A DNA stretch of 63,162 nucleotides, counting the filler, from Stramenopiles sp. TOSAG23-6 (Eukaryota), in assembly GCA_900128565.1 (NCBI GenBank). It is 40 parts of 40 records of this genome, joined end to end, with 100 filler letters (N's around TTAATTAATTAA, not from the genome) between each part and the next. Parts side by side here need not be neighbours in the genome. Positions count along the whole stretch, not along the records: positions 1 to 1,489 come from LT638974.1; positions 1,590 to 3,078 come from LT638975.1; positions 3,179 to 4,666 come from LT638976.1; positions 4,767 to 6,254 come from LT638977.1; positions 6,355 to 7,842 come from LT638978.1; positions 7,943 to 9,430 come from LT638979.1; positions 9,531 to 11,018 come from LT638980.1; positions 11,119 to 12,606 come from LT638981.1; 32 more parts are not named here. One strand, written 5' to 3'. The notes beneath the pieces were generated by a model, which had not been told where the DNA came from, searched no databases, and worked only from the letters and a program-made list of their open reading frames with translations. Position 1 is the stretch's first letter, and the number at the start of each line of letters is the position of its first letter. Below are positions 56-63,073 of the stretch, one piece after another. The position numbers were made by a program, and so were the translations under genes.

Positions 56-621
56 CATAGGGATGAGGACGGTTATTACTGGATAACTGGTCGTGTTGAT
101 GACGTTTTGAATATTTCTGGTCATCGAATTGGCACTGCTGAAATTGAGAGCGCTTTACTCTTACATGATCATTTAGCCGAAGCTGCCGTATGTTTTATTT
201 TTTTTTCAAATTCGAATTTTTTTTCGTACGAAATTTTGTACCTAACGAGTTTTTTTTGAAATATTTTTCCATAATACATGTAGTTGGATATCCTCATGAT
301 GTCAAGGGTCAGGGTTTGATGTGTTATTGTGTTCTTAAAGGAGGAGTATCCGAATCTGAATCATTGGTAAATGAACTAAGAATGAAAGTTCGAACTCATA
401 TAGGTCCATTTGCCACTCCTGATCTTATTTCTATCGTACCCGGTTTACCAAAGACTCGTTCAGGAAAGACGATGAGACGCATCCTTCGTAAAATTGTTGC
501 ACAGGAAACAGAACCAAGATCAAAACTTGGTGACATCTCAACTTTAATTGATCCATCAGTAGTTGAAAAATTAATAACAAAGGTGAATGCATCGATTGCG
601 TCTAAAAAGGCTCGCACATAA
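56..621 (+). CDS. ACS: Acetyl-CoA synthetase, C-terminal exons (56-187, 280-621)
   Basis: [33 protein letters not shown]...[16 protein letters not shown]...[16 protein letters not shown]. Confidence 0.95.
188..279 (+). other. Introner-family intron, GT...AT (92 nt)
   Basis: Removing GTATGT...ATAATACAT joins GCC|GTA and restores EAAVVG. The AG 4 nt further downstream would frameshift. Confidence 0.9.
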
Positions 622-852
622 TTTCAGAGAAAGACCCCAAAATTACAAATGAATTGTGTTTTTTATAAAATCACTTTTTTTTAAATATTTTTTCTTTATA
701 CTTCAGCTAAAGCTTCAACATATATGAGTTTTCTGTATATACCAATTACAACATATTTAAATTTTTTGGAGGAAGGTTTTGAATATTTTTTTTATTTCTA
801 CATCGCTTAAAATTCTTTATCAAAATGCTAAAATTCATAAAAATGCTAAAAT

Positions 853-1404
853 TCATAAAAATGCTAAAGTTCGAACACCGCGGCTAGTACCATCATCATT
901 GGCAACAAATGAACGTTGTATAGCAACAATAGGTTGACTATCTTTTCTTAAGCCCATATCTTCAATTGCTTCAATCGAACTATGAAGGGCACCAGCGGTG
1001 ACGTCATCTTCTTCGAGAAGAACAGGTATAATACCTCTATATAAGTTACATGCATTGAGAGTCCTTTCATTTGAACTAGCGACAATGATTGGACAACTCG
1101 GTCGGTATTTTGCGACGGCTTGCACTGTAGTTCCACCTTCTGAAAAAACTAGAACAGCAGCAGCATCTAGTTTACGCGCAGCAACCACAGCTGACACGGC
1201 TGCAGCTTCAACAGAGGTGTCAAAAGTACTCAATAATCCTGTTTTTTTATTAACACCACGCATTTCTTTCAAAGTCGAGGAATAATCAACTGCAACTTCA
1301 GCTTCGATTGCGACACTGTGCATCATTTTTAAAGACTCAATAGGATAAAGCCCCTTTGCTGTCTCACCACTCAACATAACTGCATCTGCGCCATCCAACA
1401 CTGC
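853..1404 (-). CDS. PK: Pyruvate kinase, last exon
   Basis: AVLDGADAVMLSGETAKGLYP...VAKYRPSCPII. The preceding intron ends AAAATACAT. Confidence 0.95.
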   Translation of the reverse strand, partial: AVLDGADAVMLSGETAKGLYPIESLKMMHSVAIEAEVAVDYSSTLKEMRGVNKKTGLLSTFDTSVEAAAVSAVVAARKLDAAAVLVFSEGGTTVQAVAKYRPSCPIIVASSNERTLNACNLYRGIIPVLLEEDDVTAGALHSSIEAIEDMGLRKDSQPIVAIQRSFVANDDGTSRGVRTLAFL

Positions 1405-1642
1405 ATGTATTTTGGAAAAATATATTTTTTTAAATCGTTAGGTACAAAATTTTTATAAAAAAATAAATTCGATTTTTTTGTAAAAAAAANNNNNNNNNNN
1501 NNNNNNNNNNNNNNNNNNNNNNNNNNNNNNNNNTTAATTAATTAANNNNNNNNNNNNNNNNNNNNNNNNNNNNNNNNNNNNNNNNNNNNAAAATTTCGTA
1601 CGAAAAAAAAAACTAAATTCGAAATTCATAATGAAAACGTAC

Positions 1643-59899: not shown

Positions 59900-60214
59900 A
59901 CAGAGAAAAAACTTAAAAAAATAAAATAAAAACTGTTTTGAATTTTGAAATTGAATTGTTTCGTTCATTCATTTCAATCATAAAAAAAAAAAAATCTAGA
60001 AATTTGTTTTTTGATATAGTNNNNNNNNNNNNNNNNNNNNNNNNNNNNNNNNNNNNNNNNNNNNTTAATTAATTAANNNNNNNNNNNNNNNNNNNNNNNN
60101 NNNNNNNNNNNNNNNNNNNNATGTATGTTTTATTTTTTTTCAAATTCCAATTTTTTTTTCATACGAAATTTTGTACCTAACAACTTTTTTTTGAAATATT
60201 TTCCCAAAATACAA

Positions 60215-61480
60215 AAGGCTATAGCGGCGACTTTAAAACGTCTCAAAGACATAGAAGAGAAAATTGCTGATGTTCCATTTATGCAGATCAAGAATGTAAA
60301 GAGTGAGGCTGAAAAAAAAATGGAACGTTCGGCAATGGCAGATTTTTTTACAGGGGAAAAAATTCGAATACAGAGGCAAATGAAAGAGGAAAAATTACAC
60401 CGTACAAAACTGAAACACGAAAAGGACCGTCTGAAAATTGTTTTAAAATTAGCAAATACTGATGAAGAAACAAAATTGAGTAGTTGGCACCTTATACCTC
60501 CAGACTTAAAAACTGCAAATGTTGTATTGAACAAGGATGATTGGCAAGACTTCAGGGTGTATATAGATTTAGATAAAAAGTTGCCGGGGGTCCGCCCAAA
60601 AGGCAATGTAACTGTACGTTTTCATTTCAATTTTCGAATTTATTATTTTTGTTTCATACGAAATGTTGTACCTAACGATTTTTTTTTAGAAATATTTTTT
60701 CACAATACATGTCATCAAAGGTTTACCACCAAAGGAGTATCCAACAGAAGCAGAAATGAATATGCGCGGAGTGTTAATCGTTCGACGAAAAACTGGTGAT
60801 GATGGTTGGTTTCAATTCAATGATAAGATGGATACATTATTTCATGGTTCTTGGATGGATGTATGTTTTATTTTTTTTTTACTATGAATTTTTTTTTTCG
60901 TACTAAATTTTGTACCTAACAATTTTTTTTTGAAATATTTTTCCAAAATACATGGTATTCGACAAGGGAATGGAACAGAAGTTACGAAATATTCACATTT
61001 CGTCGGACCATTTTCAAGAGGTATTTCGAGTGGCCGTGGTGTTTTAGCTTGTAAAGATGGTGTTAAATTTGAAGGTAAATTAGGTATAAAAGTAAAACAT
61101 ATTGACAGTGAAGGGGGATTATTAGTACCAATTTTATATGAAAATGAATACCATAATGGAGTTTTTCAAAGTAAAGGAAAAATTACATTTGCCGATGGAG
61201 CAATCTATGAAGGCCAATTTCTAGATGGCAGGATAACAGGAGAAGGTAAATATACATTACCTAATGATGAAGGTTATTATGAAGGACAATTTGAGAATGG
61301 TCTTCTTCAAGGAGAAGGTGTAAAAGTAGATAAAACAGGTATGATGTGGGAAGGTACATGGAATAAAGGCTTGTTAGATGGTTATGGAACTCAGACTTCT
61401 CTTGATGGACACTGCTTATATACAGGTACTTGGTCTAATGGCTTATGGCATGGAAAAGGGAAATTACACACACGTAGTAT
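60215..61480 (+). CDS. MORN-repeat protein (introns 60614-60710, 60861-60953)
   Basis: FHGSWMD|GIRQGNGTE; YEGQFLDGRITGEGKY repeats. Confidence 0.9.
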
Positions 61481-61691
61481 GTATGTTTTATTTTTTTTTT
61501 TAAATTTGAAATTGAATTTTTTTTTCGTACGAAATGTTGTACCTAACAATTTGTTTTAGATTTTTTTTTTNAANTATTTTNCNAAANTACANNNNNNNNN
61601 NNNNNNNNNNNNNNNNNNNNNNNNNNNNNNNNNNNTTAATTAATTAANNNNNNNNNNNNNNNNNNNNNNNNNNNNNNNNNNNNNNNNNNNN

Positions 61692-63073
61692 ATAACCACT
61701 TGCTATGTATTGTGAAAAAATATATTTTTTTAGAATTGTGAAAAAATATAATCTTTTAATAAAAAAAAAATTCTACATAAATAAATCAATTTTGAAAACA
61801 TGTAAAACTGAAACGTCCAAAATGTACTATGAAAAAAAAAAACGAGAAAAAAAATAATAATTAGGTACAAAATTATCTATGAAAAAAAACATACATGTAA
61901 AAGCCAAGAGTCAACTTCATCTTTACTTTTATCTCCTAACATTTCACGGGCATATATGTATGTTTGGAAAATATTTCAAAAAACATTTGTTAGGTACAAG
62001 ATATTTTGAGAAAAAAAAATAAATTCGAAATTGAAAAAAATTTTTACCAAAAAAAAAAAAAAATTCGAAATTGAAAAAGAATAAAACATACAAGACACAC
62101 AAATTCTCACGACATCATTAGAATCTATACTTGTTGGTAATGGTTCTTCAACAGCAGCACAATGGTAAAATTTTGCTAGGGACATCATTGANCTGTAATT
62201 TTCTTTGGATTCTTCATCANTNGCTGATTTGCATTTTTCTCGGAGAGTATCAATTGTTTTTTTCCCAGAAGAATCATTTTTTAGAATACCACCATCATAA
62301 CCATTTTTTAATGCACTCATAAAAGTTGTTTCAAGAATTTCATCCATCGATTTTGCCGACATCAAACCTCCTAGTAAGCCTGGACTAGTTGCTCCTGGTT
62401 TTTGTTGGGTCATCAAGTTAGGGTTAGGGTTAGGGTTAGGACTTTTTGTGATGGATGTCTTGTCTCCAAGATCTACAATACCCTGAGACGTTCTTATACT
62501 GTTTCCTCTAGGAAGACTCCTATATGATTTGGATGAAGAAGTAAGATTTTTTTCCATACTTTTCGGGGAAAAACTCAGAGGAGAANTCNAATTGGTTTTC
62601 TTTTTTNTTGGTGAAATTCTTCTGCGCCTGGCCGCGGAATTCGCNGCNGCAGTTACAGCTAATGATGAACTACTCCCATTATTTGATAATACTTTTGGTT
62701 CCATTGACTTTGGGTTTGAGGCTCTTCGTAACGCATCTTGGAAGCCTTTAATAGCGGCAGCATCGCTAGAACGTCGATTTCGGCTATCTCTTTTTCTAGG
62801 AAGAGCCGGAGCTGGTGAAGACTTTGCACGAGCCATTTCTAAAGTTTGCATGGGAGGTGGAGGTTCATCAGGCGGAGCAAATGAAGGAGGCGCAAAACTT
62901 GGAGGTGAAAATTTCGGATTTGGATGAGACGGCGGCTTTGGTATATACTGTTTAGGTGACGCCGCTTTTCGATTATTGGCACCAAATGCAGCAGAAACGT
63001 CAAAGAGAACATCATCATCATCACTACTATCATTACTATCACTAGAAAGGAAAGTAGATATCATCATTCTCAC
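61692..63073 (-). CDS. Pro/Ser-rich hypothetical protein (introns 61954-62091, 61705-61894)
   Basis: Long ORF, then spliced CVSYAREMLG...WLLH|SKWL. Confidence 0.6.

Follow-up and report, generated by a model that had tools for sequence, protein, structure and literature searches.

An intron family with predominantly GT–AT ends and a U1 gene matching its donor site in Stramenopiles sp. TOSAG23-6

Introduction

The AG that closes introns is among the most constant signals of eukaryotic gene expression, and spliceosome structures explain it by contacts made at the second step of splicing. Here, we describe a family of introns that begin with GT and almost always end with AT, found in a stretch of 63,162 bases from the assembly of Stramenopiles sp. 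TOSAG23-6 (GCA_900128565.1; the whole stretch is called the window below), together with a U1 small nuclear RNA (snRNA) gene whose 5′ end is complementary to the donor of the family. Departures from the usual splice signals have several precedents. In Entamoeba, the donor consensus and the pairing sequence of the snRNA reportedly changed together (bioRxiv 10.1101/2022.06.08.495308), and we know of no report of a changed 3′ dinucleotide there. U12-type introns are defined by an RTATCCTT donor and a branch motif within about 10–20 nucleotides (nt) of the 3′ end.

In animal and plant surveys, GT–AT is a recorded, rare border pair (PMC1557818). In the tunicate Fritillaria borealis, 95% of introns escape GT/AG, with changes in the modification of U1 and U6 and in U2AF (PMC13326754). 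The splicing of introners removes the element along with one copy of its border repeat and thereby restores the coding sequence (PMC12130899, PMC7789003). Our literature search, which did not cover the 2016 marine diplonemid single-cell paper or the supplements of papers, found GT–AT as a rare pair only and no lineage in which it dominates.

Results

A family of introns without a terminal AG

The window is not one locus. It consists of 40 contigs of 1,471–1,489 bases joined by linkers (N runs plus a six-frame stop sequence), and all counts, as well as the extent of the family, refer to these 40 unrelated ∼1.5-kb contigs (59 kb) of a fragmented assembly. Within them the family is real, its motifs being far more frequent than chance predicts: TACCTAAC is present 42 times (0.71 expected), the donor together with the two exon bases before it (ATGTAYGTTT) 27 times (0.81 expected), one of these being the U1 gene itself, and the 3′ block TTTYMMAATACAT 11 times (0.28 expected). 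From 5′ to 3′, a copy reads GTAYGTTTT, a variable T-rich part, CRTACGAAATTTYGTACCTAAC, a T run and finally GAAATATTTTTCCAAAATAC plus two bases. The termini of the element are ATGTATGTTT, and typical copies are 91–150 nt long (median about 98).

A curated census yielded 28 complete and at least 15 partial copies, distributed over the genes for acetyl-CoA synthetase (ACS), pyruvate kinase (PK), RCC1, CLASP, ApaG and MORN proteins as well as other genes (Table 1). Every complete copy lies in sense orientation and starts with GT. Their last two bases are AT in 25 cases, with AC (22011–22105), TT (46059–46154) and AA (60123–60214) once each and AG in none, the same tally that the preliminary description of this DNA had reached by hand. 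Eight further unique copies keep the 3′ end only; seven end in AT and one in GT (bases 1–55, where GT was assigned by position alone). A separate regular-expression pass over 28 3′ blocks with an upstream branch motif gave AT 23 times, TT twice and GT, AC and AA once each, a set in which the duplicate contigs, and at 6675 a TT that is probably false, are included. The duplicates form two pairs (22224–23707 with 23808–25291, and 52251–53725 with 53826–55300; 99.9% and 100% identical) that are assembly redundancy or alleles and inflate raw motif counts; in the curated census, copies on them were entered once.

The GC content of the window is 23–36%, and it contains long open frames under the standard code (translation table 11). 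Pfam matches in the exons comprise the acetyl-CoA synthetase C-terminus, two pyruvate kinase paralogues, RCC1 repeats, CLASP_N, ApaG and MORN, and the Pfam search of small or lineage-specific exons returned no match. The open frames and the Pfam matches together identify the source as a eukaryote. The closest protein matches of the exons are environmental sequences with 50–67% identity (at most 67% for the ACS exon and at most 55% for the PK exon), and a protein search with the MORN-gene exon 60215–60613 found no match among 21 candidate sequences. An Atlas look-up yielded generic pyruvate kinase clusters only.

Removal of the copies restores coding sequence

In an automatic frame pass, excising each copy from GT to its final two bases left an open frame running across the junction in 17 of 22 rows. 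The remaining five were mispaired motifs on the duplicate contigs (52407, 53982), rows with an N beside the junction (22064, 60174) and one row with seven open codons upstream (61996). Scanning frame restoration by end dinucleotide gave no discrimination, since any in-frame deletion that reaches into exon 2 likewise keeps the frame.

In the ACS gene, exon 1 ends in AEAA and exon 2 starts with VVGYPHD; the joined sequence aligns without a gap to eight homologues, all of which have Ala at the junction, so that the EAA|VVG motif which the preliminary description listed as restored is colinear with all eight. The two PK paralogues offer a comparison within the window. Paralogue 1 (853–1437, minus strand) is uninterrupted over the aligned C-terminal domain, and paralogue 2 (47523–48362, plus strand) carries three family introns; spliced at all three, paralogue 2 aligns without a gap to the intron-free exon of paralogue 1 at both junctions that the alignment covers, which bears out the proposed TAM|DIG junction and a second PK junction. 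The exon of paralogue 1 has no introns at the positions of two paralogue 2 introns, a difference that fits gain or loss alike. For the RCC1, CLASP, ApaG and MORN genes, which had been put forward on the same grounds, Pfam matches on the exons confirm the gene identities, and it is open frames only that speak for the exact junction residues. Similarly, the junction before a P-loop has its open frame, from which alone its exact residues are read.

RNA evidence, taken from assembled contigs and not from read counts, covers one junction. A 248-nt contig from a poly(A) seawater metatranscriptome (X3 record 7, one mismatch) matches 49850–49938 and then 50063–50210 (89 + 148 nt). It bridges 49938|50063, and intron 49941–50064 is therefore absent from it. 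Transcripts free of the inserts were what the preliminary description had looked to as its check, and this poly(A) contig is one, passing over an internal AG behind a T run. The exon downstream of the same intron is matched by a further two RNA contigs, which come from other studies; one of these starts at 50064. At the DNA level, a contig from an independent study (X5 record 18, one mismatch) runs without a break from the 3′ block of the preceding intron, 49738–49852, into the following exon, which places that intron in DNA.

These observations bear on two readings in which no splicing takes place. The first is removal at the DNA level, as in ciliates, or an RNA contig that stems from an intron-free allele or from an assembly artefact. 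Its room lies in the RNA evidence being one assembled contig, in the DNA that RNA libraries can contain and in the chimeras that single-cell assemblies carry. However, the independent DNA run keeps an intron–exon border and the RNA contig lacks the intron, if at a single locus; the inserts are present in every gene examined in the source assembly; the exons use standard stop codons, as their long open frames under table 11 indicate; and the splice signals with their matching U1 would be left unexplained. We therefore regard this first reading as highly improbable. The second, that the copies are unspliced transposon insertions disrupting the pseudogenes of a decaying genome, would suit the transposon-like ends and the high copy number, but hardly the uniform sense orientation of the complete copies, the exact restoration of frames and conserved motifs, or the absence of one copy from RNA, and we give it next to no credence.

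The boundary can slide by two nucleotides

A feature absent from the preliminary description is a two-nucleotide ambiguity of the boundary. In 19 of the 28 complete copies, the two bases before GT are identical to the last two of the intron (AT/AT in 17, AC/AC in one and TT/TT in one), so the boundary slides by 2 nt and the messenger RNA (mRNA) is the same for a cut at GT..NN as for one at NN..AC. The nine discordant introns, each with the dinucleotide that precedes its GT, are 188–279 (CC), 28084–28185 (TT), 30262–30355 (GG), 30722–30824 (AC), 48161–48305 (AC), 53158–53267 (GT), 60123–60214 (AT), 60614–60710 (CT) and 61956–62091 (TT). The same spliced elements could thus be the product of AT–AC chemistry, each intron extending from the AT before GT to the C of ATAC. 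With AT both before GT and after ATAC, the 17 copies yield one mRNA under either reading, and the aligner in fact placed the RNA joint at 49939..50062, that is, AT..AC. In the rare AT–AC introns the first A and the last C form a compatible pair, and to our knowledge there is precedent for an A...C terminal pair and none for G...U.

Four lines of evidence nevertheless favour GT–AT over AT–AC. AT is missing before GT in 10 of 28 copies (CC, GG, GT and CT once each, AC and TT three times each), which would leave a mixture of NN..AC introns, whereas the GT reading has three exceptions in 28. The flanks of the ACS intron differ (CC versus AT), and the shifted cut gives Asp, seen in none of eight homologues, in place of the Ala seen in all eight. 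C8 of the U1 described below stands opposite G+1, which is the normal register. Finally, AT is conserved at the 3′ end in 25 of 28 copies compared with 18 of 28 upstream, as expected for an intronic signal versus an exon. An AT–AC register is accordingly unlikely in our estimation.

A U1 gene complementary to the family donor

Genes for U5, U2, U1 and U4 lie head to tail at 15890–16526 (contig 15882–17367), separated by spacers of 2, 23 and 5 nt, with a CTG/CTC-like linker before each. Spacers this short leave no room for separate promoters, which suggests one precursor. The pairing elements of U2, U5 and U4 look ordinary. The U1 gene, which has an Sm-like site and is flanked by bona fide snRNA genes, starts with AAACGUACAUGG as against AUACUUACCUGG in the Rfam consensus, with an additional A directly before it. 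AT|GTACGTTT(T), the donor from −2 to +8/+9, is exactly complementary to this 5′ end, and the donor pattern itself matches the U1 gene in antisense at 16230–16239.

The changed U1 positions face characteristic bases of the donor, as judged from 39 sites of which about four are false positives. Position 5 (U to G) is opposite intron +4, which is C at 16 and T at 22 sites; position 2 (U to A) is opposite +7, with T at 34; and position 9 (C to A) is opposite exon −1, with T at 32 and G at none. Exon −2 is A at 28 of the 39 sites, and +5, +6 and +8 are invariant. From the sequences, U1 appears to have changed in step with the donor of the family. Pairing with U1 also explains the AT before GT, so that a target duplication is not required for it, and the complementarity is our strongest argument for the major spliceosome. 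We found no U11, U12, U4atac or U6atac gene in the 63-kb window.

The stretch behind U4 starts after a similar linker (TACTG|ATGCC...) and is a candidate fifth small RNA; an Rfam search of 16520–16900 found nothing credible.

An extended signal marks the 3′ site

The motif TACCTAAC resembles the branch motif of yeast. Of 25 copies measured, 21 have it 32–50 nt before the 3′ end (full range 32–109 nt), close to the average of 36 nt between branch and 3′ end in Saccharomyces cerevisiae (PMC8624252). No AG occurs between the branch motif and the 3′ end in 20 of 26 introns, and in the other six, one is skipped. Intron 49941–50064 is such a case: T11-AG follows 16 nt after the branch A, and the join in the RNA contig comes 27 nt beyond it, behind ACAT. 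Among simple scanning rules applied to 26 introns (one row being mis-set by 2 nt), taking the first AT was correct for none, the first CAT for 15, the first ACAT or TACAT for 20, and the block A.A[AG]TA[CA] plus two bases for 21. An extended motif, not a dinucleotide, thus marks the 3′ site. The last nine bases (AAAAUACAU) resemble the 5′ end of U1 and can consequently pair with the donor region, including the AU of the exon; judging from this likeness, such pairing could hold both splice sites together.

Pairing of the ends is also the hallmark of a different explanation, namely non-spliceosomal, nonconventional introns of the euglenid and diplonemid kind, excised through a structure that joins the ends. 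The ends here are indeed short inverted repeats, paired in five of eight minimum-energy folds, and fragmentary single-cell genomes of marine diplonemids are reported to be rich in non-GT–AG introns (PMC12621601, PMC6221363). Yet the structure is not a stable one: eight copies with 10-nt flanks folded no better than shuffled sequences (z from −1.93 to +1.39), and the consensus fold of 17 sequences reached −0.04 kcal/mol with no compensatory pair. Structure-guided excision is therefore not supported. Moreover, nonconventional introns by definition lack U1 complementarity and conserved borders (PMC6221363), whereas the borders in the window are uniform and match U1 over 10–11 nt. This makes a nonconventional origin very unlikely.

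One copy with an unusual 3′ half deserves mention. At 41877–41969, a normal 5′ half and branch motif are followed by a pyrimidine tract with two AGs in place of the usual 3′ half; the long open frame downstream is in phase with neither AG but with ends at 41954 and 41969, each of which is AT.

A probable GT–AG intron alongside the family

In the leucine-rich-repeat-like gene on contig 30139–31620, the candidate GT–AG intron 30482–30614 has neither the branch block nor the 3′ block of the family and is flanked by the family introns 30722–30824 and 30262–30355. As far as the sequence tells, an ordinary GT–AG intron probably coexists with the family here. The presence of at least this one probable GT–AG intron (minus strand) fits the earlier wording that the family far outnumbers GT–AG introns in the window. 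If the intron is real, AG is still usable and the 3′ block of the family is a second, separate signal.

Spread and origin of the family

Pairwise identity among 20 copies has a median of 70% (range 55–89%), and the family looks introner-like. Of 80 contig ends, 21 have a signature of the family within 70 nt, which is what an assembly interrupted at a high-copy repeat should show. From two seawater runs, 5,287 DNA and 996 RNA contigs were placed on one 1.5-kb contig, where they are almost confined to the intron segments; only the number of placed contigs is used here, uncovered parts and summed depths being no measure of expression or copy number. The sole locus of a metagenome scan, an unrelated public contig (L001, 1–3221), holds a small gene with one family copy, CAT|GT...ACAT|GG, which indicates that the lineage or a close relative has been sampled elsewhere. 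A viral scan with a 16-mer produced 35 loci, all of them chance matches without family ends, and the single locus of a prokaryote genome scan was a chance match as well.

The ends of the copies, ATGTAT..ATACAT, are inverted repeats of 6–10 nt (a perfect 10 nt in 61956–62091), and the core contains the near-palindrome GTACGAAATTTYGTAC. Copies sit in a palindromic CAT|G context, with C at −3 in 11 of 26 readable copies and G as the first base of exon 2 in 18 of 28. Furthermore, both testable copies that do not end in AT repeat their upstream dinucleotide (AC/AC and TT/TT; permutation P = 0.012). We lean, by a modest degree, towards an origin from a small foldback-type DNA transposon that would have had ATGTAT...ATACAT ends, CATG-like insertion sites and a 2-bp duplication. 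Reverse splicing into U1-compatible sites is conceivable as the origin but rather improbable.

At 19100–19240, inverted family cores face each other in one intron-like stretch (plus strand, TACCTAAC at 19117; minus strand, TAGCTAAC at 19150); a nested insertion in antisense or a chimera formed during amplification could account for it. The window also contains 25 telomere-like tracts (CCCTAACCCTA; 0 expected), for example at 5060, 7973–8058, 20077, 20116, 32752–32768, 44451 and 62419. Some are in frame within open reading frames, where they encode N-P-N-P, and others belong to the 5′ portion of introns (8831, 32752, 44451). Their unit includes CCTAAC, the core of the branch motif, and such tracts occur on L001, too.

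Table 1. Introns, partial family copies and snRNA genes in the window
Feature	Position	Strand	Length (nt)	Ends and context	Evidence
Intron	188..279	+	92	GT..AT, acetyl-CoA synthetase gene; CC before GT	census, frame pass, Ala at junction in 8/8 homologues
Intron	2033..2129	-	97	GTGCGT..AT	census, frame pass
Intron	4228..4325	-	98	GT..AT	census, frame pass
Intron	19276..19378	-	103	GT..AT	census, frame pass
Intron	22011..22105	+	95	GT..AC; AC also before GT	census
Intron	27410..27559	-	150	GT..AT, RCC1-repeat gene	census, Pfam
Intron	28084..28185	-	102	GT..AT; TT before GT	census, frame pass
Intron	30262..30355	-	94	GTAACT..AT, leucine-rich-repeat-like gene; GG before GT	census
Intron	30722..30824	-	103	GTCCGT..ATATAT, same gene as 30262..30355	census
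Intron	32891..33023	-	133	GT..AT, interior diverged	census
Intron	33807..33899	+	93	GT..AT, variant branch motif	census
Intron	34885..34975	+	91	GT..AT	census
Intron	35821..35912	+	92	GT..AT	census, frame pass
Intron	46059..46154	+	96	GT..TT, CLASP_N gene; TT also before GT	census, Pfam
Intron	47663..47756	+	94	GT..AT, pyruvate kinase paralogue 2	census, paralogue alignment
Intron	47919..48060	+	142	GT..AT, pyruvate kinase paralogue 2	census, paralogue alignment
Intron	48161..48305	+	145	GT..AT, pyruvate kinase paralogue 2	census, frame pass
Intron	49273..49371	+	99	GT..AT, 3′ block ending ATAA+AT	census, frame pass
Intron	49457..49561	+	105	GTTTGT..AT	census
Intron	49738..49852	+	115	GT..AT, directly 5′ of P-loop exon	census, frame pass, DNA contig X5 record 18
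Intron	49941..50064	+	124	GT..AT; missing from RNA contig; skipped T-run-AG after branch motif	X3 record 7
Intron	53158..53267	-	110	GT..AT; identical copy on duplicate contig 54733-54842	census
Intron	55993..56124	+	132	GTAAGT..AT, ApaG-domain gene	census, Pfam
Intron	60123..60214	+	92	GT..AA by position; contig starts here, upstream exon missing	census
Intron	60614..60710	+	97	GT..AT; CT before GT	census, frame pass
Intron	60861..60953	+	93	GT..AT, MORN-repeat gene	census, Pfam
Intron	61822..61894	-	73	GT..AT	census
Intron	61956..62091	-	136	GT..AT; last 10 nt = exact reverse complement of donor consensus	census
Partial copy	1..55	+		3′ part, cut by contig start; GT end by position	census
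Partial copy	1405..1489	-		3′ part, AT end, precedes pyruvate kinase paralogue 1 exon	census, Pfam
Partial copy	1590..1642	-		5′ part, contig edge	
Partial copy	3001..3078	-		3′ part, AT end	census
Partial copy	4767..4859	-		5′ part, contig edge	
Partial copy	9531..9641	-		cut inside its last bases by contig edge	
Partial copy	18422..18501	-		5′ part, cut by N run	
Partial copy	28342..28456	-		3′ part, AT end	census
Partial copy	42644..42686	+		5′ part, contig edge	
Partial copy	48944..48999	-		3′ part, AT end	census
Partial copy	49100..49152	+		3′ part, AT end	census
Partial copy	50513..50575	+		5′ part, contig edge	
Partial copy	50676..50739	-		5′ part, contig edge	
Partial copy	53639..53725	-		3′ part, AT end; duplicate at 55214-55300	census
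Partial copy	61481..61591	+		cut near 3′ end by Ns	
Candidate GT–AG intron	30482..30614	-	133	GTAAGT..CACAG	frame and repeat pattern kept only with AG end
U5 snRNA gene	15890..16007	+			RF00020, 76.8 bits
U2 snRNA gene	16010..16206	+		usual branch-site box	RF00004, 138.8 bits
U1 snRNA gene	16230..16389	+		fourth A at 16229	RF00003, 54.1 bits, E 2.4e-12
U4 snRNA gene	16395..16526	+			RF00015, 76 bits

Discussion

We consider it likely that the introns described here are removed from precursor mRNA by the major (U1/U2-type) spliceosome and that they form a single family which has proliferated in an introner-like manner. A co-evolved U1 would bind the 5′ site, (C)AT|GTAYGTTTT, through 10–11 contiguous pairs from exon −2 to intron +8/+9. 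TACCTAAC would serve as the branch site and contain the branch point A, lariat chemistry would follow, and the 3′ site would be set by a T-rich block ending in CMAAATAC plus two bases, usually AT, with intervening AGs passed over. Cutting at GT...AT would then restore the coding sequence exactly. For the choice of the 3′ site, we favour a model in which the block is read as an extended ...AAUACAU motif, possibly with help from an altered second-step factor or from base pairing between this motif and the donor region (AU|GUAU). The preliminary description had proposed that a yeast-like donor, the TACCTAAC branch site and a conserved 3′ block define an acceptor without AG, and the RNA contig, the U1 match, the ACS junction and the skipping of AGs all support this. 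The U1 gene matching the donor and the one RNA junction are new relative to it and strengthen the spliceosomal reading.

Several points weigh against this interpretation. Direct RNA support exists for one intron only, from a single low-depth contig (2.2) whose junction is ambiguous by ATG, so that it does not fix the register; and the ACS junction is the only one with differing flanks for which conserved homologues decide the register. No spliceosome is known to us that, as a rule, links G(+1) with a terminal U at the 3′ end. The U1 gene scores 54.1 bits, under the Rfam gathering score of 69.5, and there may be a second, canonical U1 elsewhere in the genome. TACCTAAC, read by eye, pairs with the unchanged GUAGUA box of U2 only if its extra C is bulged. 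The probable GT–AG intron implies that AG has not been abandoned and that the family may need a special recognition device. As for the origin, no transposase or autonomous copy was seen in the window, and AT stands at the 3′ end of eight of nine discordant copies, which fits an AT borne by the element (or later selected) better than a plain 2-bp target duplication. Core-only fragments with neither donor nor 3′ block lie outside clear exons at 7317, 52407 (the same as 53982) and 56786; these could be remnants of transposon copies that decayed in intergenic DNA, or else introns of genes that lack annotation.

A more far-reaching proposal, which we hold only tentatively and think doubtful, is that the major spliceosome moved its normal 3′ dinucleotide from AG to AU for most introns, in step with the C-to-A change at U1 position 9 that likewise shifts the preference at the last exon base from G to U, and that a matching introner family then spread. 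Were this so, U1 positions 9–10, or a factor reading the same two bases, would help to define where the exon ends as well as where the intron does. In a bolder variant, the cluster at 15890–16526 may be a dedicated snRNA set for introners, with a canonical U1 elsewhere serving the few GT–AG introns.

If our interpretation is correct, a free-living marine eukaryote whose visible introns mostly run GU...AU and whose U1 is matched to them would be a natural experiment on 3′ site choice. It would reveal the pace at which introns and snRNAs can co-evolve, and whether the splicing code of a genome can be rewritten by an intron family that invades it. On the practical side, gene finders and RNA aligners that assume GT–AG will mis-annotate such genomes and the metatranscriptome reads derived from them.

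The introners of Micromonas, Aureococcus, dinoflagellates and others likewise place one intron family in unrelated genes and have inverted ends and a short border repeat (PMC12130899, PMC7789003); the introners of Micromonas and Aureococcus, however, use canonical splice motifs (PMC7789003), whereas the window family ends in AT and in none of 28 cases in AG. The marine protist Amoebophrya (Syndiniales) also has repeated non-canonical introns with direct border repeats of 3–5 nt and inverted repeats, but no dinucleotide pair dominates and the repeats form hairpins of 8–20 nt (PMC7789003), in contrast to the uniform GT..AT, the strong donor and branch consensus and the lack of a significant hairpin seen here. 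Non-AG ends, short border repeats and a suspected transposon origin are shared with the nonconventional introns of euglenids and diplonemids, which lack U1 complementarity and need stable pairing of their ends (PMC6221363, PMC12621601); neither holds for the window family.

The splicing signals themselves recall other systems. U12-type introns differ from the window family, which has a GTAYGTTTT donor, a branch motif 32–109 nt from the end and, within the window, a matching U1 but no U11 or U12. Compared with Fritillaria, the window family keeps GT in all 28 complete copies and departs in the 3′ dinucleotide only, and the change in U1 falls in its 5′ pairing sequence. The introns of budding yeast have in common with it a rigid GTATGT-like donor, a near-invariant branch motif and a long distance from branch to 3′ end; yeast, however, uses the first suitable AG and a canonical U1, whereas the window family skips AGs, ends in AT and is matched by a U1 that differs at three pairing positions.

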